Positions 1,828-59,954 of a DNA stretch of 64,000 nucleotides are shown here, one piece after another (positions within the stretch are counted from its first letter, which is position 1; each line of letters starts with the position of its first letter). This DNA is from Spirochaetia bacterium (GTDB lineage Bacteria; Spirochaetota; Spirochaetia; CADAEX01), in the NCBI GenBank assembly GCA_963662265.2, contig CAXXHA010000001.1, positions 128,001-192,000 on the forward strand, given 5' to 3'. Both the position numbers and the translations under genes were made by a program. The notes beneath the pieces were generated by a model. The model searched no databases and was not told the DNA's origin. It was given only the letters and a program-made list of their open reading frames with translations.

Positions 1828-2151
1828 TTAACCAGATACCTCTACAAACATTAGAGGAACATGCTGCTGAGCAGCATGCATATCTGTTTCACCAACACTC
1901 CCCTGCATCCTGGGTCGCGGCAGTGTTATTTTTATTCCGTTTGCAATGTCGAAGTAAACAAAAGATATTATTTTTTCAATTGGAATATTATATAACTCTG
2001 AAATCAATTCCTTTGTTATTATCTTTTTATCCTTAACAGCCTGATAATCTTTTGAATCTTTAAATATTATATCCATGGTCATTTCAAAAGGTCCGGCATT
2101 TTTACTTCGGATAACTTTAGCAATATCCTTTAAATAAAGCTTTTTACTCAT
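1828..2151 (-). CDS. DUF4387 family protein
   Basis: IRSKNAGPFEMTMDIIF and ETDMHAAQQH motifs; likely start MSKK at 2151, abutting the upstream gene. Confidence 0.8.
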   Translation of the reverse strand: MSKKLYLKDIAKVIRSKNAGPFEMTMDIIFKDSKDYQAVKDKKIITKELISELYNIPIEKIISFVYFDIANGIKITLPRPRMQGSVGETDMHAAQQHVPLMFVEVSG

Positions 2152-2152
2152 C

Positions 2153-3514
2153 TTAAATCTCCACAACTTTAATTGGAAATACTTCTGCAGGATCATCAAT
2201 TTCCATTAAATGATAAATATTGAATTTACATACCTTACCCAGTGGTATTTCCAAAGGGGTAAAAGGTAATGCAACATTACCAGCAGTAGCAATTCGTCCC
2301 TCATACGGATTGTGCAATAAAGAAATACGGGCCTTATTACAAACAGCATCAGCCCTTTCTTTAGTTTCAGCAACAGCTTCTATAATGATACACAGCTCCA
2401 TTGGAGGATTATCCGATAAAGTCTCTAATTCCCCCATAACTCCGTTTTTGCCATAAACATGAAAAATAAGCTGAATTTTTTCTTCCAGTTCTTTAAAATA
2501 ATCTTTTACATCTGTCTCAATTTGTGTAATTACTTCATCGATTTGAGATATAAGGATGGGATCTCTAACACCTGCAATACTGATGCTGCGATAACCAATT
2601 ATTGAAGCACCTTCCAGTTTTACAGTATAATTACTTGAGGGTTTAAATTTACTGCCTGTTACTTTAACAGCTCTTTCTGAAAATTGTTCAAAGCTGCATT
2701 CGGACAGATCCAGACTTCCCCCCGGACCTGGCAATAAATAGGGATGAGTTTTTTCATACATTGTATGTGCAGCAACCGAATAGGTCTTACATTTCTGTTT
2801 TTCACTTAATGGTTCAATGACAAATCCATCTTTTTTAAGTGTTCCGAAAATTGTCCGTCCTGAAGGTTCTGCACAAAGAGCACCACATTCCATAATTTTA
2901 CCCATGTGCCAGCACAATCCAGGATCAAAACCTTTCTTAATACCCAGAACAGCTATAGGAACGGGATCATATGCTCTTCCGGATATTATTATATCAAAAT
3001 ACCCATGTTCATCCAGCGCCTTTATATAAGGTTCAATCCCCATCTGTGCAACAATTGCTTCAGCATCATCAACATCCTGTTCTGTTAAATCGGGAACAGG
3101 ACCACAGGGGGTTATTTTCCCTTCTTCCATCTTTTTCTTTATAAGAGATTTATCAATATCACTGTAAATCAAGCACATCTTTACTTTGTAATCTTTCTTT
3201 GATGCTATTGCCCTTACAATTTCTGCAAATAAATCAACATGAATATTAGTTCCATCGCCACCTGCAGAACTTATATAAACTGGAATCTTATGTTTTAGTC
3301 CCGCAGATAATAGAATGTCAATTTCCCTATAATAAGATTCATATGAACAGGTCATATCACCAAGAGCTAATTTATGCGGACCGCTATCTGTCGATCCGGA
3401 ATCAACAGAGATAACGTCCGGATTCTTACTTAAGCCTCTTTTAAAATCTTCTATAGGAAAGCCGTAACCCAGCATACTAGTCGGAGTAAGTATTCTTATC
3501 TCTTCTTTATCCAT
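2153..3514 (-). CDS. AtuA-like (DUF1446) protein
   Basis: Motifs MLGYGF, DSGSTDSGP, GRAYDP, WHMGKIMECGALCAEP and HTMYEK; likely start MDKEE after an AGGAGG RBS. Confidence 0.8.
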   Translation of the reverse strand: MDKEEIRILTPTSMLGYGFPIEDFKRGLSKNPDVISVDSGSTDSGPHKLALGDMTCSYESYYREIDILLSAGLKHKIPVYISSAGGDGTNIHVDLFAEIVRAIASKKDYKVKMCLIYSDIDKSLIKKKMEEGKITPCGPVPDLTEQDVDDAEAIVAQMGIEPYIKALDEHGYFDIIISGRAYDPVPIAVLGIKKGFDPGLCWHMGKIMECGALCAEPSGRTIFGTLKKDGFVIEPLSEKQKCKTYSVAAHTMYEKTHPYLLPGPGGSLDLSECSFEQFSERAVKVTGSKFKPSSNYTVKLEGASIIGYRSISIAGVRDPILISQIDEVITQIETDVKDYFKELEEKIQLIFHVYGKNGVMGELETLSDNPPMELCIIIEAVAETKERADAVCNKARISLLHNPYEGRIATAGNVALPFTPLEIPLGKVCKFNIYHLMEIDDPAEVFPIKVVEI

Positions 3515-3614
3515 ATTAGTTAACCTCCTACTCGAGTAATGTATTACCTTAATTAAGTAGGTCAATTATACAGGAAGAAGGTCATAAGCCCTAATACTAT
3601 TATCATGTAGTATC

Positions 3615-7699: not shown

Positions 7700-8188
7700 T
7701 TATTCCAGAACAGTCTCTTCTGATATTACTATTCCATCTTTATAAATTACTATTTTCTTATACTTCATTTCATTGCTGCTTACATTGATCAGAGATGGAT
7801 CATGAAATGTTATCTCTTTCACTAATTGATTTTTTAAATAATATGAAAGGCTTTTATAAACACCTTGCATCTTGGTAGCTTCAGATAACTTGAAAAATCT
7901 TTCAACAGATATCAAATCCCTATTTTTCTTGCTGAAATATGTTATATGAAGAAAATAGGGAACTTCTTTAAGAGTAGCAAATCCATATTTTTCTTCAATC
8001 ATTATGAGATTATTTTCTTTATCATAGACTTTTTTAATATATTCACGATATGATTTATCATCAGGAACCATAACTATTGTCTGTCCACCAAGACTATTCT
8101 TTTTTACGATTTCCTCGGCAAATACGCCAGGTATCCTCATAACAAGCAACAAAATTATTATTACTTTCACATTCTGTAGAATACCCAT
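7700..8188 (-). CDS. Hypothetical secreted protein
   Basis: 162 aa ORF with signal-like N-terminus ending VFA; overlaps the upstream ORF. Confidence 0.5.
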   Translation of the reverse strand: MGILQNVKVIIILLLVMRIPGVFAEEIVKKNSLGGQTIVMVPDDKSYREYIKKVYDKENNLIMIEEKYGFATLKEVPYFLHITYFSKKNRDLISVERFFKLSEATKMQGVYKSLSYYLKNQLVKEITFHDPSLINVSSNEMKYKKIVIYKDGIVISEETVLE

Positions 8189-8529
8189 TCAAGATCCTCT
8201 GGAGAATTCATTCTTTTATATATTTTATACATACGCAATTCATAGTTACCATTGAGATACATAACCAGATCCTCAGTTTCATCGTAATTAATTCTCAAAC
8301 AGTCATCTATTATTTCGCCATTTCTTTGATAATTATAATTATCATGAAATAAAGTTACGTTATAAGATGTATCTCCTTTTTTTGTAATTAATATTTTACG
8401 TATAATAAAATTATCAGACCAATATTCATATTCACCGACCAGAGGATCATTTCCCTGACACAATGTTGTAAAAAGAAAAAACAGTAATAAATATTTAAAA
8501 ATATTAAGACTTTTGAACTTTTTATGCAT
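8167..8529 (-). CDS. Hypothetical secreted or lipoprotein
   Basis: Likely start MHKKF at 8529, because the longer extension lies inside an IS remnant; hydrophobic signal followed by C. Confidence 0.5.
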   Translation of the reverse strand: MHKKFKSLNIFKYLLLFFLFTTLCQGNDPLVGEYEYWSDNFIIRKILITKKGDTSYNVTLFHDNYNYQRNGEIIDDCLRINYDETEDLVMYLNGNYELRMYKIYKRMNSPEDLEWVFYRM

Positions 8530-8545
8530 ATTTAACCTACAAATA

Positions 8546-8815
8546 CCCGTATCGATGAAAAACCACATCCACACCTTTTCAATGTAGAACATCTATAATA
8601 ACGGTGATTTAATTCTAATAAAACAGAGTCATACACCACTTTTATCATATTCATTAACAAGCTTCGTCGGGAATATCATCAATACTCTTACGATGCCTGT
8701 ATTCATTATAGGAGTTAAAGCATTCATCCACAATCCTTTTTATCTGTTGCTTTACAAACTCTCTTGCAAGATATTCTGTTATTATCGATTGTACGAATCT
8801 ACAGGATTTAAGCAG
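8546..8815 (-). mobile_element. Internally deleted remnant of the same rve-type IS, with a putative right end
   Basis: ITEYLAREFVKQQI joined to KRIVDECFNSYNEYRHRKSI and KVVYDSVLLELNHRYYRCST; DNA similarity to the copies near 4060, 10450 and 45540. Confidence 0.65.
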
Positions 8816-27326: not shown

Positions 27327-27667
27327 ATTGTATCCTCCAGGAAAAGCCTGCAATACTGATATTTAAATATAATATTTCCATGATATTACTGACAGAATAG
27401 TGGCCAAAGATAACATTGTCAATAATTTTATAACATTTTCCAACATCACAATCAGATACAGCTTTATTCACGCTTTTAGAATACAAGACAGTTCAAGACT
27501 GATAGCGACTTTATCAAACATGTACTAGCTGAAGCAGCCCCTTTTATTTTTTATGGTAACTAACAACACTCTTGTAATTTAAATAAAGAACAACTATAAT
27601 CATTATAATTACTTTGAAAATTATTTTTCTTTGTATATTTCTGGAATAAAAACTGTATAGGTCTATT

Positions 27668-29453
27668 ATGCACTCATATTTGAAGCTACTTCAACCAAAA
27701 ATACAGGATCTTTCCGAACTCGTTTCTTCAACTTTAAACATGGATATCACTGTAGTTGATTCAAATTTCCGCAGGATTGCAGGGACAGGTGATTTCTTTG
27801 AACAAATTGATACACAAAGCCCAAAAATTTCAATCTTTGGAGAAGTCCTGAAAACAGGACTCCCTGCTGTCAATAATGATAAGCATCAGAATAAAATTTG
27901 CCGCAAATGCCCAAGTTTTCCAACCTGCTTTGAAAAAAAAAATATAACCCTCCCCATTCTGATACGAGAGATACCGATCGGTGTTGTGAGTCTGGCCTGT
28001 TTCACTGAAGATCAACTTCAGAGTATTTACGGAAGAGAAAGTGAATGTCAGTCAATGCTGAGACATATGAAAAAAGTCATTGAAAACGAAATTGTTGGAC
28101 TTGAACTCCACAATAAAATCATCAGTCACAAAGCAGAACTCAACGAAGTCATTAATTGCATTGATAAGGGAATTATTGTTATTGGAGAAGATTTCGCTAT
28201 AAATCATATAAATTCCGCCGCCATTACAAATCTGGATTTAAATATGTCGAAAGAGACTATTATCAATTCAAAACTTAATAAAATTATTTCAGGTATCAAA
28301 CTTGGAATTCATGAAAACGTTGAATCTCTGGCATACTGGAATCTTAAAAATAAACAGTACAAAGTTATTTATAAAATAAACCGTATAATTCTTGAAAGTA
28401 AAAACCATTTCACAATTATAACCTTTGATACTATTAAAGAAATGATAAACAAGGTTATAGACTATAAAGATAAAAAATGTTATTACTTTTTCTTCAATAA
28501 TAGGTAAAAGCGATACTTTTAAAAGTGCAATAAAAGCAGCACAGATAGCAGCAAACTCCGATTCGAATGTTCTGCTATCCGGAGAAAGCGGAACAGGAAA
28601 AGAGCTTTTTGCCCGCTCTATTTCACAATGAAAGCTATCGCAGAAACGGGCCATTTATTGCAGTAAACTGTGCAAGTATTCCGGAATCACTTATTGAATC
28701 CGAGTTGTTCGGATATGAAAAGGGATCATTTTACAGGTGCTGATCCTCTGGGAAGAAAGGGAAAGTTTGAAGCAGCTGAAGGGGGCACGCTATTTCTTGA
28801 TGAAATCACAGAAATACCCATTAATTGGCAGGCAAAATTATTAAGAGTTCTACAGGAAAAAACAGTCAGCAGAATCGGCAGCATAAAACCAGTAAATCTG
28901 AATTGTTCGCATTATTGCTGCAAGCAATAGCAATTTACAGGAAAAAGTTATCAATAAAGAGTTCCGGCTGGATCTATTTTTTCAGATTACATATTATTCC
29001 AGTTTATCTGCCGGCCCTGAGAGAACGAGAAGATGATGTCCTGATTCTTGCAGATTACTTACTGTGAGAATAATTACAAAAAAAACTTCATAAACGGAGT
29101 AAACAACTAAGTCAGGAAGTAAAAAAATGTTTTTTACAAAAATATCACTGGCCCGGTAATATTCGTGAACTTGAAAATCTGATAGAATATGGAATAAATT
29201 TCTGCTTTTTCCGATGAGATTCAGATTCAACACCTGCCCGATTATATAACAAACAGAGACATACAGCTTCCCTGCCAGCATTTTGTGAGAGAAAAAAACA
29301 GGATATAAAATCGGTGATTACTGAAATAGAAAAAAAAGGTAATCAAACAATATCTTTGATGAATATGGAAATTCAACAGAAAGTAAGAAAAAAATTGCCA
29401 AAGAGCTTAACATCAGCCTGACAACTCTGTATAGAAAACTGGGCAAATTATAA
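27668..29453 (+). CDS. Sigma54-dependent activator (YgeV-like), with multiple frameshifts
   Basis: Fragments carry [41 protein letters not shown] and a Fis-type HTH (ISLTTLYRK). Confidence 0.8.
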
Positions 29454-29530
29454 ACCAATCTGCCTCCTGCCCCCCAGGACAAAACTGCAGACAGGTTTAT
29501 AAAATTCCAGAATGAAGAATATGTAAATAA

Positions 29531-30814
29531 TCAATAAGATGATAGTATATCAATCACATCACTATCCACATTTTTTTAATGAATTCTGACTGATTATTCC
29601 CAGATTTCGAAATGCTTTCCTCAGCATCATGACCAATAATCCCGTCAAAATTTTCAATAGAGATATTATTCTTTGCCATAAGAGCCTGATAGTAAGCCTC
29701 GCATAGCTTGCAGTTGCAACCTTGTATGAACAACTTCCCTTTGCCCCGTCACAAATCATTCCGGCCAGACTGCCTATCATGTTGTTGATTGCACACTCAA
29801 TCTCTGTTTCCTTACCCCCTAAAAGCCAGGTAATAGCTGTTGAGGCCCCAATCCCTGCCGCTACTGCACATCCGCATATCGGAGAAAGTGTACCTGTATG
29901 CTGTTTAATATATGCAGTTATAAGATGACTTATTACAAGTGCCCGTTCAAGCTCTTCATCAGATTTATCCAGTTCACGGGCAACAATGGCAACAGGCAAT
30001 ATTGCGGTAATTCCGTGATTACCGCTTCCTGCACTGCTCATAACAGGAACTTTTACTCCAGCCATTCTTGCATCACACGCAGCAGCTGTAATTGCCCGGA
30101 TTTTATTTGATATATCATTTGATAGTTTCTTCTGATGAATAAGAGAAAATAACTTATTACCAAGACCTGAACTGTATGGTGTATCTGAGCCGATATTTGC
30201 CATATTCATATTCATCTTGACACCATCAATAAGAAAAGAAAGATCTGCTGGATTTGCAGTTTCTGCAAATTCAAGAATAGATGAAATATTCAGATACTTA
30301 TATTTATCAGATATTTCTTCACTCTCATTTTCCTGAGCATTTTTCAAACACTGCCTGTTTATTTTTTTTTATGCTTACTATATTGGGTATGGCCTGATCT
30401 AATTGTACATTCACCCTGACCGGAATCAGATTCTACAAGGGCATGGATGTAAAAATCCCCCTCTTTATCTGTCGCTTTAATATCAATTATATCTGAAGCC
30501 AGTATTTTCCTTGCCTTTTCAACACAGTCTGCATCAACATTTTTAAATACTTCAAGTCCAGGCATCAGCTTCCCCGCAGACAATTGCAAGTGCACTTGCA
30601 AAAGCAATTCCTTTATCATCAGTACCGGGAATTCCAACACGCATTCCATTTTTATATATATTACAGGCTTGTCTCAATACTTATTTTAAGGATCTCTCCT
30701 TCAATCTGCTTATATGAATTAACAACAGCTATTGCAACTGCAACAGGTTCTGTACAGCCAATAGCAGGGACTCACTTGCGATTTAAGAAGATTTACCCAT
30801 TTTTCGGTTTCCAA
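29531..30814 (-). CDS. cyuA: L-cysteine desulfidase-like (serine dehydratase alpha family), frameshifted
   Basis: Fragments PAIGCTEP, DARMAG..PVMSSAGSGNHG, LSPICGC and GMICDGAK..C. Confidence 0.8.
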
Positions 30815-30903
30815 ATCTTACCCCTTACAACTGTTATATATAGAAATGTATTTTTAGATAGCCGGACACCACAATCAAGCATCCGGCATATAAAAAAAAT
30901 TCT

Positions 30904-32328
30904 TTAAGATTCTGCAACCTGGTCTTTGATTTTAGCAATTCCGAATCCTGTAAACCCATAGATAATTGCAAAAATAAATCCTGAATAACAGAGAACTGCC
31001 CATGGAAGATAAGAGAGTGTCGGAACACCCTAATGTTCCAGCCATAAAAGTACCTGCAACTTGACCATGGAATTATAGGAACCACACATGTCCCGGAATC
31101 TTCAAGTGTACGGGAAAGGTTTTTAGCTTCAAGCCCTTTCTGTCTATATAAATCCTGTAAAAAGTTCACCGGGAATGAGGATCGCCATATAAGAACTTCC
31201 AGTAGCAAGACTCATGAGAATTGTCGAGGCAACAGTGGATGAAATAAGATGTCCGACAGAACGGATCTTCTGACGGAGTCTGTCGAGGATAACTTCAATT
31301 GCGCCATACTTGCTTAAAATTCCTGCAAAAGAAAGTGCACAGATAATCAGGAGCACGGTCCCCATCATTCCTCTCATACCACCACGATTGAGAAGAGTAG
31401 CAACCTCTTTCATTACATCTGCATTATCAAAACCAGCCACCTGAATAAGTTTCACATTGAATCCTTTTACAATTCCTGTAAATGCATTTTTCAGTGAAAA
31501 TCCCTGGAATATGATTCCAAGCACTCCTGCAACCATTGCAGAGAGCAGCATAAAAGGAACAGTTGGTCGTTTCCTGATAGCTCCATAAAAAATAATTACA
31601 GGGGGAATAAGCAGAAAAACATTCCAGTTAAACATGGTTTCAAGTTGAGAAAGAAGCATTGTAACTCTTTCAGGACTTGTCATTGATGAAGCAGGTGTTG
31701 CAAAACCGGTAACAAGATAAACAACAATTGCAAGAATAGCAGCAGGAACTGTAGTATAAAGCATATGCTTAATATGATCATAGAGATCCGCACCAGCTGC
31801 TGTAGGCGCCAGAATTGTTGTATCTGAAAATGGAGACAACTTATCGCCAAAAACAGCACCAGCAATTACCGCTCCTGCTGCTGCTGGAAGAGGAGTGCCA
31901 AGAGCTCCTGCAATTCCCATTATAGCAACCCCAATTGTTCCAGCAGATCCGAAAGAAGTACCTGTAAAAGTTGAAACAACAGCAGTTACCAGAAAAGCAG
32001 TCACAAGAAGATACTGAGGACTGATTATTTTTATTCCAAAATAAATCATCATAGGGATAGTCCCTGCAACAATCCAGGATCCTATCACAGCCCCAACTGA
32101 AATCATTACAAAAATCGATGTCAGTGATGAAGATATTTTTTCTTTTATTCCATCAAACATTTCGTCCCATGTATAACCAATCCTTTTTGCCACTACTGCT
32201 GCAATAAATGCGGCAAGTACAAGCAAGCCGTGAGTGGAAAGACCATACACTCCATATCCAATTCCAAGTAATGCAAATACACCAATTATCGGGATAACTG
32301 CCTCAATCAAAGTCGGTTGTCTTTTCAT
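30904..32328 (-). CDS. nhaC: NhaC-family transporter, frameshifted near the 3' end
   Basis: GTSFGSAGTIG, FGDKLSPFSDT and LLNRGG motifs; continues as LSRTLEDSGT...IPW in another frame. Confidence 0.85.
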
Positions 32329-32355
32329 ATTCTTTTCTCCAATAATATTCTGAAT

Positions 32356-32910
32356 TTATTTTTTTCGGGTTATTGTCATTGCACAGCCATGACCTTCACC
32401 ATCAGCAACAGTAGTGGGAAAATCAATTTCCACATCTTCAAAAGGGGCACATATACCATAATCACAATGACCAAGCATGTCCCGGCAGAACATTTTTATC
32501 TCTTTTTGTTCAAGGCCAAGTTCAGTAAGAGCCTCCGCGTGGGGGCACTGATGAAAAATCTTTACTGCTTTTTTGTCATTCAATTCAGTAATTTCCTGCT
32601 TGAATACGAACCACCCGCCCTTTGATGTCTGACCGAGGACAGCTTCTTTGGGGCCAATACTTTTACCGGTATATTTTTTTTTGATCTGCTCACCCTGGAA
32701 TACACCAAAATCCCAGGATCCTTCAGCAATAACTTTATTTGCATCAACTTCGGGATAAAGTTCCTTCAATTTTTTCCAGATAAAATAGACCTGACGAGTC
32801 CTGTCCTTGTAAGCTGATTTAACTGCCTCATAGTAATCCTGTGGAGAAACAGATTCGTTGAGCTTCAAACTGTCAACAAAGAACTTGATCTCTCGCTGTT
32901 CATTTTCCAT
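32356..32910 (-). CDS. L-2-amino-thiazoline-4-carboxylate hydrolase-like protein
   Basis: 184 aa; FHQCP...EI..FCRD...CD.G...T.ADG...C pattern; start MENEQ after AGGAGG. Confidence 0.7.
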   Translation of the reverse strand: MENEQREIKFFVDSLKLNESVSPQDYYEAVKSAYKDRTRQVYFIWKKLKELYPEVDANKVIAEGSWDFGVFQGEQIKKKYTGKSIGPKEAVLGQTSKGGWFVFKQEITELNDKKAVKIFHQCPHAEALTELGLEQKEIKMFCRDMLGHCDYGICAPFEDVEIDFPTTVADGEGHGCAMTITRKK

Positions 32911-32945
32911 AAAAATAATCCTCCTAAATGAATTTACAAAACTTA

Positions 32946-32961
32946 TGCAATAATCATACCA
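32946..32961 (-). promoter_or_regulatory. Sigma54 -24/-12 promoter
   Basis: TGGTATGATTATTGCA, 35 bp upstream of the ATG. Confidence 0.8.
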
Positions 32962-33488
32962 ATGAACAGTATTTCCAATTTTAAACGCAAAATATCCGAT
33001 TACATCTGGTTTATGATAGTTATTCAAACAAAAAACCAGTTTGACTAATTATTATTTTTTTCAGAAATAATAACTTTTTCAAAAATGATAAAGCATCTCC
33101 AGGGGATCAAATCATTCCTCAGAAATATATATAAAATAATTTTCACTTGTAACTGATCTGGTAGAGATATTACCTACAACCACATAAAGGGAAGCTATAT
33201 TTTCCCTTGAATATTGCTTTTTGCCTTAAGGATAAAGTAATAAATTATGAGTATTTCTATATAATTGGTGATTTAATATATGGGGTTCTCAGGGATAATA
33301 ATTCATTTTAATAAAACTAGCTCTGCTAGCCAGGGGCCAGTTAGTATGTAAAATCTATTGACATTTCTGCTGACGTAATTTGGCTTCAACAAAGAAAGAA
33401 TATTCAGGTAAAAATCAATTTCCTGTAAAATAAATATATAAAGACTAAAGATTCATATTTACCAGCCTCATTATACTCCAGAAGATAT

Positions 33489-34571
33489 TTATAAGCGCTT
33501 TATTATTTTTCGGGATGTACTCAGGTAAATTCTCATGAGATTGGAAGTTAAACATGAATGTACAGGTAAGAAGCAGATAATATCTCCTGGTTTGTATTTG
33601 TCAATTTCACTGTCAGGAACATTCACAATTCCATGTTCCTGGGAAAGCTTGCTGATATATACATTATCAATAAGACCTTTCCATCTTAAGTTGTCATATT
33701 CAACTGCTTTACCGTAAATTGTGCCGTACTCATCATCCTTAATACTGTCCTTTGAAAAATGGACACCGCCGCCATATATGACAACTTCATTTCTTTCACG
33801 GTGTACAGCAATAACAGGACATACAAGTGCAACTGCAATATTCTCAATCCCGGTCGATCCGATCTGATTTTGCGTAAGGTCATAGAATACAAAATTTCCG
33901 GGGCGTATTTCATCAGCAACCCGGAATTTATCTGTAATGCTGCATCCCGGTGTATCACCGAGAGAAATAATCAGTTCAGGGAACTTTTTAATATAGTGTT
34001 TTTTTAAAACATCCATTATATCAAATGATCTTTCTGTAATTTCAATAATATCCTCTCTTCTTCTGCAGTCATATGTGTGACCAGCATGGCTCAAAAACCC
34101 TTTGAAGATAAGTTTTTCAGAAGATTCCAGAACATTGAGAATCCTGTCAATTAATATTAAATTGTCAGGATCAACACCTGTTCTCTTATAACCGGAATCA
34201 ACCTTTATAAAAATACCGGCACTGTGGCTGAGGTTCTCCTTCAGAAATAATGCTGCCTCTTCTGATTCAACAAGCAAGTTGAGATTAATTCTCTCTGCCA
34301 GGGAATTAATCTCATCAATTTCAAGCAGATTAACAGAAAAAGCAATTGTAATATCATCCCATTCTGCAGAAAAATATTCAGCCATTGTTACTGATGAAAC
34401 AGTAATTTTATCAACGCCGAAATCCTTATACCATCTTCCTATTTCCAGTGACTGGTGTGTTTTAAAATGCGGCCTAAAAATAAGATTGTTTTTGGATGCT
34501 TTATCAGCCATGTTTTTTATGTTATTCCTGCATTTACCTTCATCAACAATTAAAGCCGGTTTTTTTATCAT
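33489..34571 (-). CDS. Fold-type III PLP enzyme (D-threonine aldolase/D-serine dehydratase-like)
   Basis: RPHFKTH, SHAGHTY, EIRPGNFVFYD, LSQEHG and PVHSC motifs. Confidence 0.85.
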   Translation of the reverse strand: MIKKPALIVDEGKCRNNIKNMADKASKNNLIFRPHFKTHQSLEIGRWYKDFGVDKITVSSVTMAEYFSAEWDDITIAFSVNLLEIDEINSLAERINLNLLVESEEAALFLKENLSHSAGIFIKVDSGYKRTGVDPDNLILIDRILNVLESSEKLIFKGFLSHAGHTYDCRRREDIIEITERSFDIMDVLKKHYIKKFPELIISLGDTPGCSITDKFRVADEIRPGNFVFYDLTQNQIGSTGIENIAVALVCPVIAVHRERNEVVIYGGGVHFSKDSIKDDEYGTIYGKAVEYDNLRWKGLIDNVYISKLSQEHGIVNVPDSEIDKYKPGDIICFLPVHSCLTSNLMRIYLSTSRKIIKRL

Positions 34572-34711
34572 ATTGTCTCTCCAATTGGGAATTGAATCTG
34601 TACATAATCATCTCTAAAAAGAAAAAGGCCAGAAGAACTGTTATCCCTCTGAAATATTTTATTACACTGAAAGAGAAAAAACAAAACTGTTTTAAACAAT
34701 AATACGGTTAT

Positions 34712-35746
34712 CTATGCATCACTGAAAACCCTGGATATTGACTTCTTTATCACTCCCGGTAAAATTGATTTCTTCTGGTTGAGAAGGTAGATCAGAAAAA
34801 GTTCTTCAATTGTCTGCCTGGGCCCTTCTGTATTTTTAATTTCTCTTTTTACAGTATTTCCAAGACGCATCTGAAAAAAGGAATATATTTCCCTGGCATC
34901 TCCATTAATAAATATCTTATGTTTTTCTTCATAGATTTTATCTTTTTTAAGAATTTCAATAGATTGTTCTCTGTTTACTGCAGGGATCTTAAGACTTTTC
35001 ATCCTGCTGCGTAAATGTTTAATTTCCTCATGTTTTAACCCGAAAACAAATTCTTCTAGAGCAGATTCCAAACCAGCATTGCCGGGAGCAGATGACAGAA
35101 ATTTCCCCCATGTTTCAGAAAGATTTATGGAAAGCTTCAGGATTTCTGATGTCCCCTGTAATGTACCAAGAACAGGGATCAAATTACATCGTTCTTTCCA
35201 GAGAGCCATCAGGGGAGGAGAAAATGAATCAAGGTTTCGATCCATTCTGAATTCCCAGAGATGAGCAAGTTCATCAGAAGCAATCTGCTTAAATTTCCTG
35301 TGTGTAACATTATTCTTTATTATTGCTTCATAAGTCTCTTCCGCCATTAATGAAAAAACAAGACTGTTGCATGTATTTTGGATTTCATTTACAAGAACAG
35401 AGTCTGTTTTATAATCTGATATTACCTTGAGAAGAAAATAGAAGAAATTTATTTTTGAAAGTATAAAACTCCTCCCCATTATAGCCCGTGTAGGTAAAAG
35501 CAGGGGATTCGAAGTACTGAACTGAATTATTGTATTTGACATGGTTTTTATGTCTCTTTTATTCAATCCATATCTTTTCCTGCTTTTAAGCGATGGTGTT
35601 TTGGAAACCAGAACTGCAAGGGATATAAGAGTTTTTTTCTGGTTCATAAATGTAGCATATATATCTTTTCCTGAGTTCTGTAATATCTCCTCAGATTTAT
35701 CAACCAGACGTAATTCTTTATCAGAAAAAGCAGTAATCTTGTACAT
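34712..35746 (-). CDS. Hypothetical protein
   Basis: 344 aa helical-looking ORF; no recognised motif. Confidence 0.65.
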   Translation of the reverse strand: MYKITAFSDKELRLVDKSEEILQNSGKDIYATFMNQKKTLISLAVLVSKTPSLKSRKRYGLNKRDIKTMSNTIIQFSTSNPLLLPTRAIMGRSFILSKINFFYFLLKVISDYKTDSVLVNEIQNTCNSLVFSLMAEETYEAIIKNNVTHRKFKQIASDELAHLWEFRMDRNLDSFSPPLMALWKERCNLIPVLGTLQGTSEILKLSINLSETWGKFLSSAPGNAGLESALEEFVFGLKHEEIKHLRSRMKSLKIPAVNREQSIEILKKDKIYEEKHKIFINGDAREIYSFFQMRLGNTVKREIKNTEGPRQTIEELFLIYLLNQKKSILPGVIKKSISRVFSDA

Positions 35747-35971
35747 AGTCTGAATACTATATATTAAAGATTTTTCTGAACAACCTGAAAAAAACAGAAA
35801 CAGATACTACATATTTACTACACATTTTCCGGAAGATATCATAATCCCCCTGACCTTTCATAAGTCATAAATACACGTTTTTTAAACAGTTCTTCAGTTA
35901 CATCCCCCTGATCTAATAAATATTTTTATAGAGTTCCCTGTCCCTGAATAAATCTTTGAAGAGGTTTTATA

Positions 35972-36928
35972 TTAATCTGAAAGAAGGTCCCTTACATTGT
36001 CACTGTCTGTATTGCCGCCTGACAGCACAATTATATTTTTCTTTCCTTTTTTCAGGTTTATTTTTCCTGAAATAATACCTGCAAGACCTATTGCTCCCGA
36101 TGGTTCTGCGAGGAGTTTTCCATGTAACAGTATTTCCCGGAAAGCCTGTCTGATACTGTCATCAGAAACACAGACAATATCATCAACATATTTTTCTGTC
36201 ATTTCATAAAGAAGTGGAAATGTTTTTGTCATTTTCAGCCCGTCCGCAATTGTATGGATGAAAGGGACATCAACAGGTCTGCCGGCCTTCATGCTTGCTG
36301 TAAAGCGGGGGATGGCTTCTGTTTCAACTCCTATTACCCGGATACTGCCGTTGTTTTTTTTGACAGCACATCCTATTCCTGATACAAGGGCTCCCGCCCC
36401 GAGAGGCACTATGACAGTGTCTGCATCACCTGCCTCCTCGGTAATTTCAAGGCCCAGAGTACCATGGCCTGCAATTATCTTACTGTCATTGCATGAATGA
36501 ACAAGGGTGCATCCCCTTTCCCTGATTATTTCAGATACTTTTTCATATCTCTGAACAGGAGTCTCCCCGTATAAAACAACTTCAGCGCCCAGTTTTTTTA
36601 CCAGTTCAATTTTTGTTTTCCTGGCATTTTCAGGCATGACTACTATTGCTTTTATTCCGCAGAGTTTTGCTCCATAGGCTACCCCCAGAGCATGGTTTCC
36701 GGATGAAGCTGTAATTATTCCAGATTTCTTTTCATCTTCTGTAAGCGAAAGGATTTTATTGAGAGCACCCCTGATTTTAAATGAACCTGTCAGCTGAAGG
36801 TTTTCAGGCTTGAAGATAATCTCTGTATTGAATTTACTGCTTAGAAAATAATTTTCAATAAGAGGAGTTTTTTTTACATAGGGACCTATTTGTTTTCCAG
36901 CTGATACAATATCTTCAAAATTGACCAA
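35972..36928 (-). CDS. Threonine/serine dehydratase, catalytic domain only
   Basis: KPENLQLTGSFKIRGA, ASSGNHA and SGGN motifs; TTG start after AGGAG. Confidence 0.88.
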   Translation of the reverse strand: MVNFEDIVSAGKQIGPYVKKTPLIENYFLSSKFNTEIIFKPENLQLTGSFKIRGALNKILSLTEDEKKSGIITASSGNHALGVAYGAKLCGIKAIVVMPENARKTKIELVKKLGAEVVLYGETPVQRYEKVSEIIRERGCTLVHSCNDSKIIAGHGTLGLEITEEAGDADTVIVPLGAGALVSGIGCAVKKNNGSIRVIGVETEAIPRFTASMKAGRPVDVPFIHTIADGLKMTKTFPLLYEMTEKYVDDIVCVSDDSIRQAFREILLHGKLLAEPSGAIGLAGIISGKINLKKGKKNIIVLSGGNTDSDNVRDLLSD

Positions 36929-36999
36929 GATACTTACTCCTGCTGCAGCTACTGATTTTCTTTACAATATATATTAAAAATAAGTTCTCTCACAGATAT

Positions 37000-37027
37000 A
37001 AAAGCCCCGCCTGTACAGGCAGGGCTG
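37000..37027 (-). terminator. Intrinsic terminator after the DAACS gene
   Basis: AGCCCTGCCTGTACAGGCGGGGCT followed by a T run on the minus strand. Confidence 0.65.
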
Positions 37028-37032
37028 TAAAA

Positions 37033-38253
37033 TTATGCTACTTTTTCTTTCTTTTTTTCTTCCAGTTTATCGATTATAACAGCTCCTGCAAGGTCTCCTG
37101 TACAGTTGAGTGTTGTTATTCCCATGTCAACTAGCCTGTAAAGACCAGCCATTATAGGTACAATCTCAAGAGGAAGGTTGAATGTTGCAACAAGAACTGC
37201 AATTTTTACAATTCCTGATCCGGGGATTCCTCCACCGCCGAGTGTTACAAGAACTGCAAATCCCACCATGAGGAACATCTGGGGTATTGAAATTGGAATA
37301 CCTGAAGCCTGTGCTGTAAAGATAAGCACTATCGGAAGAAGGACCCCGTTACCATCCTTGTTTATCTGTGATCCGAGAGGAATTGTAAAATTAGATACTG
37401 TTTCTGAAAGTTTGAAATCTTCTTTTGCTATCTTGAGTCCCATCGGAATAGATGCTGTACTGCTGCAAGTACTCAGGGTATAAATCATAAGAGGTGCTGC
37501 TTTTTTAATAAATGTCCATGGAGAGATTTTTGTCACAATCCAGAGCAGGAGTATGTAAACAAGGAAGAAGTGAACAATTGCACCGAAATAGAATGTTCCG
37601 AGCAGTTTTGCTATTGGTCCAAAGAGGTCTGATCCGTATTTTCCGAAAGTTGCTGCCATCAGACAGAAAACCCCTATTGGTGAGAATGAAATAATTATTC
37701 CGACAAGGGACTGGACAAGGTTTGAAAGATGTTCAAGTCCTTTTCTGATTGGTTCACCCTTTTCACCCATATAAACAGCAGCAAGACCGAGAAATATTGA
37801 GAATACAGCTACATGGAGAACATTTCCCTTTGTCATTGATGCAATTATGTTTTTCGGAAAGAGGTCAAGGACAAATTTCTGGAAAGATGTGAATTCGGCA
37901 AGTTTTACACCTTCGGTAGATACTCCTGCAAAAGAAAACCCGACTCCCGGCTGAAGGACTTTACCCACAACAAGCCCGATCACTGCTGCGAGCACAGTTG
38001 TAAGCATGTAATAACCAATTACCTTTCCTCCAATGCTTCCCAGTGTTTTAGGATTTTTTGCACTGCAGATTGCAGAACTCATTACAAATAAAACAATTGG
38101 AATAAGTGTCATTTTCAGCAGGTTGATAAAAATATCTCCAATAAATTTGATTTGTACTGCGCCTGGTCCCCAAATCAAACCAACTACAATACCGGAAATC
38201 ATTCCGATAAGTACTTTCATGGAAAGCGACTGCTTTTTCCACCATGTAAACAT
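37033..38253 (-). CDS. Dicarboxylate/amino acid:cation symporter (DAACS)
   Basis: STCSSTAS, PLGSQINKDG, GIPGSG and DMGITTLNCTGD motifs. Confidence 0.92.
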   Translation of the reverse strand: MFTWWKKQSLSMKVLIGMISGIVVGLIWGPGAVQIKFIGDIFINLLKMTLIPIVLFVMSSAICSAKNPKTLGSIGGKVIGYYMLTTVLAAVIGLVVGKVLQPGVGFSFAGVSTEGVKLAEFTSFQKFVLDLFPKNIIASMTKGNVLHVAVFSIFLGLAAVYMGEKGEPIRKGLEHLSNLVQSLVGIIISFSPIGVFCLMAATFGKYGSDLFGPIAKLLGTFYFGAIVHFFLVYILLLWIVTKISPWTFIKKAAPLMIYTLSTCSSTASIPMGLKIAKEDFKLSETVSNFTIPLGSQINKDGNGVLLPIVLIFTAQASGIPISIPQMFLMVGFAVLVTLGGGGIPGSGIVKIAVLVATFNLPLEIVPIMAGLYRLVDMGITTLNCTGDLAGAVIIDKLEEKKKEKVA

Positions 38254-38305
38254 ATAATACTCCTCTTTATATTTTTAAAGGATTTAAAATCCTTTCATAA
38301 ACAAC

Positions 38306-39349
38306 CTAGTTTGCCAGCTTCCTGAATATACCGGCAGCTTCCGCTGTCATTTCACTGCTGATTCCCCTGTAGAGGACTGCCCTTATGCAGTTTTTATCAA
38401 CTGCATTTACTAGTACTCCGAGTTTTCTCAGCTCAGATGAAAAAGTTTCTGCATCCATTCCTGTTTCAGAAACATCAACTTTAAGAATATTTGTCTGAAC
38501 TGATTTCATATCGATTTTCAGGGATTTTATTCCGCTTAATTCAACAGCAAGGGCTTTTGCATTTTTATGATCTGCCTTAAGCTGCTGCGGACCTGTTTCC
38601 AGCGCAACAATACCTGCAGCAGCAGCAATACCTCCCTGCCTGAGTACACCGCCGAGATATTTCTTGTTTGTTCTTGCTTTTGATATAAAATCTCTGCTGC
38701 TGCACAGGAGGGAACCCATAGGAGCCCCAAGTCCTTTTGAAATACAGAACATCACTGAGTCTGTATGCTTTGTAAACTCCCTGACATCGGTATTGAGAGC
38801 GACCGATGCATTAAAAAGTCTTGCTCCGTCCATGTGTACCGGCACATTATGTTTTTTTACTGTTCTTGATATTTCAGCCATATAATCAGGAGAAAGACAT
38901 GTACCTCCGTAAAAGTTGTTTGTATTCTCAATACACAGGGCTTTTACCCTGCTATCTTTAAGCAGTTTGTCTATTGAAGATATGTCGGGAGATCCAAGGG
39001 AATCTGTCTTATAATAAAGCGGCTTTATTCCTCCAGGCCTTTCAGCAAAAATTCCTTTTTCACTTTTGCATACATGAAGATATTCATTTGCCGCGCAGTA
39101 ATCACCGTAATTTGTATATGTAATGAGGGCCAGAAGATTTCCCATTGTTCCACTTACACAGAAAAGGGCAGATTCCATGCCGGTTATTTCTGCTGCTTTA
39201 TCTTCAAGCAGTCTTATGGTGGGGTCGCCTCCCCTGTTGTCATCTGTAAGACGTCCTTCATCTCCCAGCTCTGCTTCTGATATAGCTTCATACATAGCTT
39301 TTGTAGGTTTTGTTAAAGTATCGCTTCGTAAATCAATCACTGTTGTCAC
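38306..39349 (-). CDS. ltaE: Low-specificity L-threonine aldolase
   Basis: IDLRSDT, SGTMGN, ENT.N, HMDGARLFNA and SKGLGAP.GS motifs. Confidence 0.88.
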   Translation of the reverse strand: MTTVIDLRSDTLTKPTKAMYEAISEAELGDEGRLTDDNRGGDPTIRLLEDKAAEITGMESALFCVSGTMGNLLALITYTNYGDYCAANEYLHVCKSEKGIFAERPGGIKPLYYKTDSLGSPDISSIDKLLKDSRVKALCIENTNNFYGGTCLSPDYMAEISRTVKKHNVPVHMDGARLFNASVALNTDVREFTKHTDSVMFCISKGLGAPMGSLLCSSRDFISKARTNKKYLGGVLRQGGIAAAAGIVALETGPQQLKADHKNAKALAVELSGIKSLKIDMKSVQTNILKVDVSETGMDAETFSSELRKLGVLVNAVDKNCIRAVLYRGISSEMTAEAAGIFRKLAN

Positions 39350-39379
39350 CTCAATTTTATGGATAATTAACAGTAATAA

Positions 39380-39395
39380 TGCAAAGCTTGTGCCA
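39380..39395 (-). promoter_or_regulatory. Sigma54 -24/-12 promoter
   Basis: TGGCACAAGCTTTGCA matches the consensus TGGCAC-N5-TTGC. Confidence 0.9.
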
Positions 39396-39502
39396 GATCT
39401 GTTTTTTTATAAAAAATCAGGGGATTAAGATTGGTTTTTACAGAATTTGCAGGTTTTTGCGGTATTATATTGCAAAAATGAATTATTGAAGTGATTATTC
39501 AG

Positions 39503-39549
39503 TGTCGCTCATGTCGCAAACGCAACAACAGATATGTTGCAATGCAACT
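39503..39549. promoter_or_regulatory. Putative enhancer (UAS) for the PrpR-like activator
   Basis: Imperfect palindromes TGTCGCAAACGCAACA and TGTTGCAATGCAAC, about 110-155 bp upstream of the sigma54 site. Confidence 0.6.
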
Positions 39550-39553
39550 ACAT

Positions 39554-41416
39554 TTAAATATTGAATTTTCTGCACAGCCTCCAGAAAGTGCTTCTGTGAA
39601 TACCGAGAAGTTCTGCAGCCTTTGTCTGGTTGCCTCCGGATGAATCAAGAGCTTTAATCAGATCCTCTTTTGCTACAGGGCTGATTTTCCTCTTGAAAAT
39701 TTCTTCACAGCTGTCTTCGTCGCATGGTTCATATGTTGTTATCATATTCCGTATAGTTTCTGGTGTAATAATCTTGTCTGTGTTGATTATGCTCAGTTTT
39801 GATATAAAATTCTTCAGCTGCCTTATATTTCCCGGCCATGAGTAATTTTTCATTTCATTAACCGCTGCTTCCAGTATTTCAGGCGCAGAGTTTTTTGTCT
39901 GCATCCAGAAAAAAATGAACAGCTCATAGATATCCTCTTTTCTCTCACGCAACGGGGGAATAAAAAGAGTAAGCACATTAAGACGGTAAAAAAGATCATC
40001 CCTGAATTTTCTCTCACTCACCATGTTGCGAAGTTTTTTATTGGTCGCAGCTATAACCCTTACATCGACAGGAATAAAACTGTCGCTTCCAAGTCTCATT
40101 ACTTTCCGTTCCTGCAGAACACGGAGGAGCCGCCCCTGCAGAGTCAACGGCATTTCGCTTATTTCATCCAGAAATATTGTTCCATTGTGGGCAAGTTCGA
40201 AGAGTCCGGTTTTCCCTTTTTTCTTTGCGCCGGTGAACGCCCCTTCCTCGTAGCCGAACAGTTCGCTTTCAAGAATACTTTCCGGAAGAGAAGCACAGTT
40301 GACAGCAACAAAGGGACCGTTTTTTCTTTTCCCTGCATTATGCATGCTCTGTGCGAAAAGCTCTTTTCCTGTTCCAGTCTCTCCGGTTATCAGAACAGTC
40401 ATATCTGTTTCTGAAAAAAGTCCTGCATTCTCAATACAATCCCTGATTGAACTGCTTTTACCCTTTATATCCTTGAACCTGAAGGAAGCAAAAAGGCCTT
40501 TATTCAGCAGCCTGTTCCTTATTTTATGCTCCCCCCTGGTGATTGTGTTGATATCATTGAATGTTGCTATTGCACCTATTATTTCATTGTTGTTTATCTT
40601 GAGCGGAATGAGATCGCACAGCACAGATGTATCTTTGAGACGGGTAATTTCCTGGAGCCTGCTGTTCCCTGTTTTAAGAACAGTGTTAAGCTCTTTGAGT
40701 TCAGGAAAAATATCCTCCAGGGTCTGCCCTTCAGGACTTATGCTGTCTGGAAGTAAAGCTGTAGCTGTCCTGTTTATAAGAGTTATTTTCCCCTCATTGT
40801 CTACTGCAATATATCCTTCATGTGTATTATTTAGAACAGCATTAAGCTCTTCATTTTTTCTTACATTGCTGATTATTGTATCAAGTAGTGCTTCTGCTTC
40901 ACTTATTGCATGAGAAAGAGCCTTTTCACTGAAATCAATCCTTACATAGTTCATGTTCAGCTTTTTTGCAATTCTTGCCTGGAGTTTCCCCCCGACAAAA
41001 ACATCAGTCCCTTCATTCTTCAGTTTAAGCATCTGCTCAATTGTATCTTTTTCATCGCTTGTTCTTATCTGTTTTATATTGATATTTAAAAGGGGATTGA
41101 GTTTTTCAAGCCCCTGGAGAAGGTTTCCGAATCCGATGACTGCTATCTGGGTTCCGAATTTTCTGGCATCGTTTAATGCCTGGATCAAATCTTCAAAAGG
41201 GACAGGAATTTCAACAACAGGAAGGGAAGTGGTTTTTCGGATTTTCATCGCAGTTCTTCCCCTTGCAATTATTACCCTGAGTCCTTCCTGTATAAGTTCC
41301 TCCGGCTTTTCAGGATTGTAAATCTGGATATCAACAGATTTTCCGAGTTTTTCAAAGATCCCTCCTGCAAGTTCTATAAAATCTTCATTATATGCTGCAT
41401 AGCAAATCCTGTTCAT
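39554..41416 (-). CDS. PrpR-like sigma54-dependent activator
   Basis: PrpR_N-like start (IIARG, PVVEI), PAS-like region, [14 protein letters not shown] and Fis HTH. Confidence 0.92.
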
Positions 41417-58680: not shown

Positions 58681-59905
58681 TCAGGCGATCGAACGGTCTT
58701 TGCCGTAATATATTACATTTTTATAATTAACAGGATCTGTATCGCCTTCTGTGCTTATAAACAGAACAACAGAGTCACTGTTCAATCCAAGTGAATTCTT
58801 CAATTCAGACAGTTCACTTTTTCTCATGACAAGATCAATAAGTCCCACGCCGACAGATCCTGATTCTCCTGATACGATTTTTTTATCAAGGCCGACAGGA
58901 TTGGCCAGTATTCTCATTCCATTTGCAGATATGAAATCAGGGCATGATATATATGCAGAAGCAAAATCCCTTAATATTTCCCATGTAACTGTGTTAGGCT
59001 CTCCGCATGCAAGACCTGCCATTGCTGTATTCAGATCCCCTTCCACGCGATGAGGCTTGCCGTCATTGGCAAGAGCTGATTTATATATGCATGCTGCCTC
59101 ATTCGGCTCTACAATAACTGTAATAGGGGGCTCTCCATTGAATCGGTTCACATAATACCCGAGAACTCCACCTGCCATTGCGCCTACCCCGGCCTGCAGA
59201 AAAATATGGGTCGGTTTATCAACACCGGTTTCTTCAAGCTGAGTCTGCATTTCATCAGCCATAGTCATATAGCCCTGGGAAATCCAGTTCGGTATTTTTT
59301 TCATAACCTTCAAACGCTGTGTCCTGTACAAGGATCCATCCGTTCTCTTCACCTTTTTGAGTAGCGAATCTTACAGCATCATCATAGTTCAGATCTGTAA
59401 CATGTGTTTCCGCCCCTGCATTTTTTATAGCATCAACCCTTGACTTTGCAGCCCCCTTCGGTAGAAAGACTACAGATCTGCATCCAAGCTGAGTTGCGGC
59501 CCAGGCTATTCCCCTTCCGTGATTACCATCAGTTGCAGTTACAAATACAACATCCTTTATCTTTTCATTTATTTCCCTTGACTTGAAGTAATCAAAGGAA
59601 ACTTCATCAATATTCTTGCCAAGCCTATCACAGAGAATCCTTGCAATTGAGTAAGTACCTCCAAGACTTTTAAATGCATTAAGGCCGAACCTGTGAGATT
59701 CATCTTTAACATAAATTCCCTTAACACCTATTTCAGCTGCCAGGCTATCAAGTCCCACCAGCGGAGTTTCTTTATATCCTGTCATTGAAGAGTGGAATTT
59801 TCTTACACTTTCAACTTCCTTCATGTTAAAAAGCTCAGGTAAACCATTATTCACAACATTGCTGGCTACTGCTTTAATTCCCAATACTTCGTCAAACACT
59901 TTCAT
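58681..59905 (-). CDS. dpaL: Diaminopropionate ammonia-lyase, frameshift at the homopolymer near 59300
   Basis: KDESHRFGLNAFKSLG, TATDGNHG, QDTA, QAGVG, MAGLACGEP and STEGDTDP motifs. Confidence 0.92.
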
Positions 59906-59938: not shown

Positions 59939-59954
59939 TGCAACTATCATACCA
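59939..59954 (-). promoter_or_regulatory. Sigma54 -24/-12 promoter
   Basis: TGGTATGATAGTTGCA upstream of dpaL. Confidence 0.8.

Follow-up and report, generated by a model that had tools for sequence, protein, structure and literature searches.

In anaerobic bacteria, breakdown of cysteine by CyuA/CdsB-type enzymes is a main source of hydrogen sulfide (H2S) other than sulfate; this breakdown is also linked with the control of toxins in C. difficile. To our knowledge, the entry of cysteine or cysteine adducts into these pathways is poorly known outside E. coli. Here we describe a locus within a stretch of 64,000 nucleotides (nt) of DNA from Spirochaetia bacterium (assembly GCA_963662265.2, contig CAXXHA010000001.1, positions 128,001 to 192,000 of the forward strand), to which we refer as the window. 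The locus brings cyuA together in one operon with the genes for an NhaC-family carrier and a highly conserved small protein. We conclude that the operon is a variant of a known cysteine-catabolic unit and that the module of small protein and transporter is an undescribed lead.

The closest described system is the cdsR-cdsB pair of C. difficile, which is depicted, in the available parts of the two papers, as dependent on sigma-54 and CdsR and as induced by cysteine (PMC5767170, PMC6615313). As described there, it shares with the window locus a -24/-12 promoter and an activator of ~590 amino acids (aa), with PAS, AAA+ and Fis-type helix-turn-helix (HTH) domains, that lies beside CyuA/CdsB. In the window, by contrast, two genes, for a PF14196-like protein and an NhaC-family carrier, precede that of the desulfidase, which comes third. 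The cyuPA operon of E. coli is likewise similar in that an importer and CyuA are encoded together for anaerobic cysteine breakdown, as outlined in the available text of PMC9040844. Unlike cyuPA, the window operon combines a sigma-54 promoter with an enhancer-binding activator and has an extra first gene. Its carrier, a member of the NhaC family, is presumably of a different family from CyuP.

For the small protein itself, the nearest described counterpart is the Pseudomonas L-2-amino-thiazoline-4-carboxylate (L-ATC) hydrolase AtcB, the founding member of PF14196. AtcB (described in the available parts of PMC5847659 and PMC10821248) and the window protein have in common a hidden Markov model (HMM) likeness that is borderline to clear across the family, three Cys, an Asp and an Arg, and a connection with cysteine metabolism. 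The window protein differs in that it lies below the family cut-off and belongs to a subfamily in which His124 is also invariant and Cys149 nearly invariant; its gene has no neighbour for a racemase or carbamoyl-cysteine amidohydrolase, and the organisms that carry it are anaerobes. A second likeness, based on a predicted structure, is to Bet3 and to the V4R/XylR_N sensor domains of PoxR, MopR and DmpR, which appear to share its fold and a Cys cluster in the C-terminal half. In contrast to those sensors, it is a stand-alone protein of 184 aa and not a regulator domain, is 11-16% identical to them and lies beside transporters.

The operon is read on the minus strand of the window, in the order small gene, NhaC-family gene, cyuA-like gene, and the activator gene is convergent on the plus strand:

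32946-32961, minus strand: sigma-54 (-24/-12) promoter TGGTATGATTATTGCA, a pattern match 36 nt before the AGGAGG-ATG start at 32910
33061-33127, strand unspecified: direct repeat of TCAGAAATA (copies 58 nt apart), located 100-170 nt before the promoter
32356-32910, minus strand: small gene P0001, an intact open reading frame (ORF) of 184 aa; PF14196-like, with a predicted Bet3/V4R fold and a conserved Cys cluster
30904-32328, minus strand: NhaC-family carrier gene (PF03553), broken; three extra letters near 31158, 31061 and 31030
29521-30814, minus strand: gene for a predicted CyuA/CdsB-type [4Fe-4S] L-cysteine desulfidase (PF03313), broken; at least nine frame breaks, from ~9-10 extra letters
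29442-29464, minus strand: terminator-like hairpin and T run after cyuA, a consensus match only (1 against 0.1 expected)
27668-29450, plus strand: gene for a CdsR-like sigma-54 enhancer-binding activator (sensor, PAS, AAA+ and HTH), broken; at least 11 frame breaks

Operon genes and sigma-54 control

A sequence-only reading of the window had proposed a sigma-54 operon of PF14196-like, NhaC and CyuA-like genes with a convergent activator; all of these parts are present, and the promoter is conserved. The loose -24/-12 pattern occurs seven times in the window against 1.79 expected, and none of 100 shuffles reached seven. The GG and GC elements of the operon promoter are kept at the same place in all six aligned spirochaete-type upstream regions, three of which match the exact typed pattern, and they are also found upstream in L070, a locus with a different gene architecture. 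The genome contains an intact rpoN (393.6 bits, cut-off 277), so that a -24/-12 promoter, an AAA+ enhancer-binding activator and the sigma factor of such a regulon all occur together. The copies of the TCAGAAATA repeat are candidate binding sites for the activator, and TTTCTSA-like words also occur upstream in the aligned related loci. In a search of 16 sources, the region before the small gene gave no relevant riboswitch or leader RNA; the only matches, to tRNAs, RNase P and one sRNA, lay elsewhere.

Domains of the activator were taken from its orthologue in L020, a Sphaerochaetaceae chromosome, which has PAS, Sigma54_activat, AAA lid and HTH matches. Over 588 residues, the N-terminal sensor among them, this protein shares 36% identity with a Romboutsia activator of 593 aa, which is encoded directly upstream of a 438-aa CyuA; the Romboutsia genome compared belongs to the same bacterial family as C. 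difficile, and by analogy its activator-CyuA arrangement matches cdsR-cdsB. The CdsR likeness rests on this Romboutsia protein and on the architecture of CdsR as given in the available descriptions. Against the NCBIfam PrdR model the activator reached 392 bits, below the cut-off of 795. It is convergent with the operon in the window and in L020, and divergent in L003, L004, L005 and L007.

The carrier gene matches PF03553 in two pieces, one of 394 aa (172.1 bits) and a second, out-of-frame one (23.9 bits). Its L020 orthologue reaches 511 bits on TIGR00931 (cut-off 370) and 319 bits on the ArcD model, which is below the cut-off of 650; the TIGR00931 and PF03553 models assign a family only, not a transported substrate. 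The small gene and the NhaC gene overlap by 4 nt in L020.

For the third gene, a piece of 261 aa gives 162.7 bits on PF03313, and the L020 orthologue aligns over residues 7-424 with the solved L-cysteine desulfidase 9fsl (E 2.9e-35). In the available portion of PMC12647591, Cys287, Cys329 and Cys336 are named as cluster ligands of CyuA and Glu25 as the proposed base. Their equivalents (GCTE, C-x-C and CDGxKxxC) are kept in L020 and in the window pieces, where they read GCTE, CGC and CDGxKxxC. Full-length homology, the cluster Cys and the catalytic Glu are all present, and on these grounds the protein is assigned to the CyuA/CdsB type. The link to cysteine desulfidation made in the sequence-only reading is supported. 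Neither the CyuA-like protein nor the small protein has a model in NCBIfam.

A second, intact CyuA paralogue of 427 aa is encoded in the same genome (G000 contig C41, locus L086, 1492-2775) beside NifS-like and NifU-like genes. It scores 152.5 bits against the solved CyuA, compared with 125.2 bits for the operon-type copy, and the two are ~40% identical. Its setting suggests a sulfur-mobilising role apart from the catabolic operon.

Other -24/-12 sites of the window belong to separate units. Directly upstream of the operon, at 33489-41416 on the minus strand, lies a second sigma-54 unit with a PrpR_N-type activator (39554-41416) and the site TGGCACAAGCTTTGCA at 39380-39395, which is followed by genes for a beta-eliminating lyase, an SDF-family symporter, a PALP enzyme, a 344-aa protein and a D-serine-dehydratase-like protein; this region looks like an amino acid catabolism island. 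A third match, TGGTATGATAGTTGCA (59939-59954, minus strand), precedes an ORF at 59255-59905. The activator-like gene that adjoins this unit (60327-61869, minus strand) gave tblastn matches in two pieces and may be frame-broken too.

The small protein and its transporter partners

The small protein scores 26.7 bits on PF14196 (E 1.1e-5) against a gathering cut-off of 28.1, so that its own membership is borderline; its relatives support the family likeness seen from sequence alone. Of 35 family members, 32 match PF14196 at E <= 0.01 (best 1.9e-9), and the nearer relatives P0125 and P0129, at 35.2 and 36.5 bits, pass the cut-off. Conversely, a profile built from the family recovers clear PF14196 members (43-58 bits) at E 1e-17 to 1e-14. 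This profile found 116 representatives at E <= 0.001 among 1.84 billion proteins; the ten that were scanned include the two nearer relatives just named and a group of 160-aa proteins, which are clear PF14196 members. We therefore file the small protein, on sequence grounds, as a peripheral subfamily of the ATC-hydrolase superfamily.

Of 248 candidates found in a search with P0001, 182 are relatives at E <= 0.001. Those listed, 120 in number, do not differ in length and share 61-84% identity; the sources named among them are Spirochaetia, Romboutsia, Tissierellia, Phascolarctobacterium and Succiniclasticum. Identity of the protein ranges from 55 to 84% when records of spirochaetes, Firmicutes and Syntrophobacteraceae are compared. 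An alignment of 35 sequences has C122, P123, H124, C142, D150 and C176 in every member and C149 in nearly all; R37, E50, D56, Q94, S96, Q105, K117, T166, T167 and D170 are further invariant polar residues. The three-Cys cluster that marks PF14196 is formed by C122, C142 and C176. Five residues (R37, C122, C142, D150 and C176) are invariant in all 22 sequences of a set joining the family with clear PF14196 members. By analogy, we infer that the Cys cluster is a metal site.

The AF2 model of the small protein has a pLDDT of 95.4. With this model, Foldseek returned Bet3, PoxR, MopR, DmpR, V4R and H-NOX structures (E 1e-4 to 2.5e-2, TM 0.39-0.54), and VIA-align gave Z scores of 8.8 for Bet3, 8.0 for PoxR, 7.9 for DmpR and 6.0 for the MJ1460 V4R protein, down to 4-5. 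These scores are modest and consistent, and they indicate that the modelled protein has a Bet3/V4R/H-NOX fold. The available text of PMC5847659 describes the HNOB, V4R and ATC-hydrolase domains as related and as having a common Cys cluster. Neither the single sequence nor the profile found a solved structure for the small protein by sequence (best E 0.38, noise), and the ESM Atlas gave only DUF6125 and ATC-hydrolase clusters (0.90-0.92), adding nothing beyond Pfam.

Two longer proteins contain the small-protein domain. A 773-aa form fused to a glycogen-phosphorylase domain is probably an artefact and was set aside. P0143, an 844-aa protein from one 78.8-kb contig, carries a Hydantoinase_B/oxoprolinase domain (475 bits) and a C-terminal small-protein domain (E 2.8e-27 against the profile of the family).

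Gene neighbourhoods were compared in 81 loci (18 from genomes and 63 from metagenomes), which form 47 groups when loci whose small genes are >=97% identical in nucleotides are merged. The loci were found through peptide patterns of the small-protein family and so cover relatives down to ~52% identity only. The arrangements were as follows:

33 of 47 groups: NhaC immediately downstream of the small gene, same strand
1 of 47 groups: NhaC divergent from the small gene
7 of 47 groups: polar-amino-acid-type ABC importer directly upstream (SBP_bac_3, two permeases and ATPase)
1 of 47 groups (L070): activator, sigma-54 promoter, small gene, Liv-type ABC system and CyuA-like gene
5 of 47 groups (three short contigs, L069 and L074): no transporter seen

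An amino acid-type transporter is thus beside the small gene in 42 of the 47 groups (NhaC in 34, polar ABC in 7, Liv-type ABC in 1). Records that bear the names Phascolarctobacterium, Acidaminococcus, Succiniclasticum, Romboutsia and Yanshouia contain the pair of small gene and transporter, so that knowing its function would help to annotate many genomes. In L069 the small gene is followed by two aminotransferase genes. L074 (2224-6543), which stands for three near-identical metagenome loci, has the small gene as the last of four same-strand genes, after a creatininase-family gene, an M28 peptidase gene and an isoaspartyl dipeptidase gene (420 bits, over cut-off), with no transporter.

Among the 28 NhaC-type groups that extend at least 3 kb downstream, CyuA and the activator accompany NhaC in 6, each of which is spirochaete-like. 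The sequence-only reading had named lack of conservation of the trio as a point against its proposal, and the trio is not conserved in general. The conserved unit is the small protein and an amino acid-type transporter, and the link to CyuA is real, lineage-specific and present in two architectures. The small gene was not found in two same-genus and the other 17 same-family genomes searched, and the operon DNA was not found in the two same-genus genomes, where only scattered flanking-gene, ABC and AAA+ matches were seen. In Romboutsia, an Rrf2-family regulator is divergent from the pair; it scores far below the CymR cut-off and is only a hint. Two Negativicutes-type loci have a gene for a GNAT acetyltransferase immediately before the small gene (L008, 6342-6845; L014, 5431-5907).

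In the literature searched, supplementary files being outside the search, no paper joins ATC hydrolase with NhaC or describes the small protein, and none joins three or more of thiazoline/thiazolidine, cysteine desulfidase and gut bacteria. Among papers found for PF14196, ATC hydrolase or DUF6125, only a domain census and a review were relevant.

Frame breaks in a 2.7-kb patch

The letters of the window truly contain frame breaks, at least 3 in the NhaC gene, 9 in cyuA and 11 in the activator gene, whose Sigma54_activat matches fall in two different frames. Dense frameshifts in one patch can be assembly errors, and contigs from public sequencing runs are informative in such a case. Words sampled from 27600-33100 were found at a rate of 66-85% in six public runs, which belong to two studies, and four of these runs were compared in detail. 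Single contigs of X1, X3 and X5 cover all of 27600-33100, and each carries 32 gaps relative to the window. The X1 contig (depth 11) has no substitution, and those of X3 and X5, which come from the second study, have five each.

Details of the gaps come from 12 of 35 gap rows. Each of the 12 listed is one letter fewer than in the window; X1 and X5 show all 12 and X3 shows 10. All 12 extra letters are A or T, and 10 of them lie within runs. X6 and X1 stem from one sample; the X6 contigs agree with the window letter for letter, but only in pieces between break sites (27600-28476, 29709-30343, 30386-30561, 30837-31029 and 31200-33100); the last piece covers the small gene with no differences.

We also aligned the window DNA, in a frame-tolerant manner, to the intact L020 proteins:

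Activator: nine extra-letter and two missing-letter events, 320/584 identical, no in-frame stops
cyuA: eight extra-letter events and one missing-letter event, 217/425 identical, no in-frame stops
NhaC: three extra-letter and no missing-letter events, 367/472 identical, no in-frame stops

All three genes align over their full length when the frames are followed. The inferred break sites fall between the X6 pieces, and all are within 28472-31158 (2.7 kb). Dropping only the 12 listed letters extends the activator frame from 279 to 357 aa, which is short of full length because 23 further gap rows lie outside those 12. Cover by ORFs of at least 150 aa, taken in 2.7-kb windows, has a genome median of 0.89 and is 0.32 in this patch, which places it in the lowest 1.7%.

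The 32 one-letter gaps, the listed ones all extra in the window, together with the absence of substitutions relative to X1, are the signature of an error and not a mutation spectrum. We conclude that the frame breaks are most likely assembly insertions and not decay; the concern that the locus might be truly pseudogenised is answered by contigs of independent public runs that are free of them.

Similar features were seen elsewhere. The flanks of the patch are clean, and local low cover or failed polishing are guesses at its cause. Open-frame cover is also very low in 14 further patches of the genome, some of which may be rRNA or similar. Overlapping same-strand ORF pairs on the minus strand at 1828-3565, 7700-8592 and 58681-59905 of the window could be frame breaks or ordinary overlaps. 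Single frame breaks occur in other metagenome-assembled genome (MAG) records, in cyuA of L004 (~8152) and NhaC of L008 (~8532), either as errors or as real changes.

Proposed function and alternatives

Three unrelated transporter types occur beside one small protein, and therefore the tie between them is likely the transported compound and not the fit to a carrier. Because of the transporter classes, this compound would be amino acid-like, and it would be cysteine-related because of CyuA, the CdsR-like activator and, as a hint, the Romboutsia Rrf2 regulator.

We propose that the convergent CdsR-like activator switches on the sigma-54 operon, which would be intact in the living organism, and that the NhaC-family carrier then takes up cysteine or a cysteine-derived compound. 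The small cytoplasmic protein would act on the imported compound, most likely in a hydrolytic or ring-opening manner like its distant relative L-ATC hydrolase, and CyuA would split the resulting cysteine into pyruvate, ammonia and H2S. Such a role for the operon (uptake, cytoplasmic conversion by a small metalloprotein, and desulfidation of cysteine or a derivative) has in our estimate a probability of about 0.55. That the small protein is an enzyme, as the analogy with AtcB suggests, has roughly even odds. The hydrolase-rich context of L074 and the single Hydantoinase_B fusion weakly favour the hydrolysis of a ring or amide.

Several observations weigh against this proposal. The small protein is under the PF14196 cut-off, and its L020 orthologue has no Pfam match at E 0.01. 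The Bet3/V4R/H-NOX fold is best known for ligand binding, not catalysis. The operon contains no carbamoylase or other hydrolase, and neither a carbamoyl-cysteine amidohydrolase nor a racemase was found in it or downstream in the related spirochaete-type loci. P0143 is a single sequence and may be a fusion, a read-through or an artefact of gene calling. CyuA and the activator are both present in 7 of the 47 groups, and, of five other genomes with the small gene, CyuA was found anywhere in only two. Plain cysteine would be a suitable inducer for a CdsR-like activator, and the pathway would then require no conversion. As to the intact state of the operon, X1 may be the source sample of the window assembly, and the restored frames derive from the listed gap sites and the alignment to L020.

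The main rival is plain import and fermentation of cysteine, cyuPA-like and under CdsR/sigma-54 control, in which the small protein is a non-catalytic binder of a ligand or metal. Importer and desulfidase form a known unit, as the available text of PMC9040844 describes, and the activator resembles CdsR. This explanation does as well as ours on the fold and on the missing partner hydrolase, and the Cys cluster resembles a structural Zn site that, in the available part of PMC5847659, is common to V4R sensors and the ATC hydrolase domain. A caution already raised from the sequence, that without a carbamoylase the small protein might be a ligand-binding partner, is in keeping with the predicted fold. 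Set against this, transporters of three unrelated types accompany the small gene, which mostly occurs without CyuA; the many invariant polar residues beyond the Cys cluster suit an active site as well as a binding pocket; and the one biochemically characterised relative is an enzyme, according to the available text of PMC5847659. We regard plain import, with the small protein in an accessory role (it might, for example, buffer, sense or carry cysteine, sulfide or iron-sulfur), as a serious contender, if the less probable account.

It is unlikely that the substrate is unrelated to cysteine and that the CyuA-like enzyme has another specificity (serine, D-cysteine or selenocysteine). The paralogue beside NifS and NifU is the closer of the two to the solved enzyme, the operon copy shares only ~40% identity with that paralogue, and the neighbours in the window are other amino acid catabolic genes; however, the operon copy keeps the cluster ligands and catalytic Glu of CyuA, and its activator resembles the one beside CyuA in Romboutsia. 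Slightly less probable still is a regulatory or structural subunit that gates the NhaC-family carrier. The immediate succession of the two genes on one strand, in 33 of the 45 groups with at least 600 nt downstream, and their 4-nt overlap in L020 would suit such a subunit, but eight groups have an ABC system of one of two kinds and no NhaC adjoining the small gene, the well-flanked L069 and L074 have no adjoining transporter, and no fused forms came to light here except the odd 773-aa protein. Finally, a decaying pseudogene cluster with only the small gene intact, for which the many breaks and the operon's seeming dispensability in the 2 same-genus and other 17 same-family genomes might be cited, is very improbable given the one-letter gaps (A or T in all those listed) confined to 2.7 kb, the agreement of the second study's contigs with X1, the lack of any stop once frames are followed and an otherwise unfragmented genome.

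Our preferred role for the operon, uptake with conversion and desulfidation, leaves the substrate broad. The sequence-only reading had named a thiazoline or thiazolidine cysteine conjugate; nothing in the analysis identifies one, and the activator points at least as much to cysteine. A wider version, which we offer tentatively and consider doubtful, is that the small protein founds a widespread family of cytoplasmic metallo-enzymes with the V4R/ATC-hydrolase fold, which would act on heterocycles or conjugates that derive from cysteine and are imported, either opening them or freeing the cysteine. If this is true, candidate substrates would include thiazoline, thiazolidine, oxothiazolidine and carbamoyl or acyl forms of cysteine. 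The family would then represent a new salvage and H2S-producing route in anaerobes of the gut, rumen and sediment, served by interchangeable transporters, and in spirochaetes this route would be wired to CyuA under a CdsR-like sigma-54 switch.

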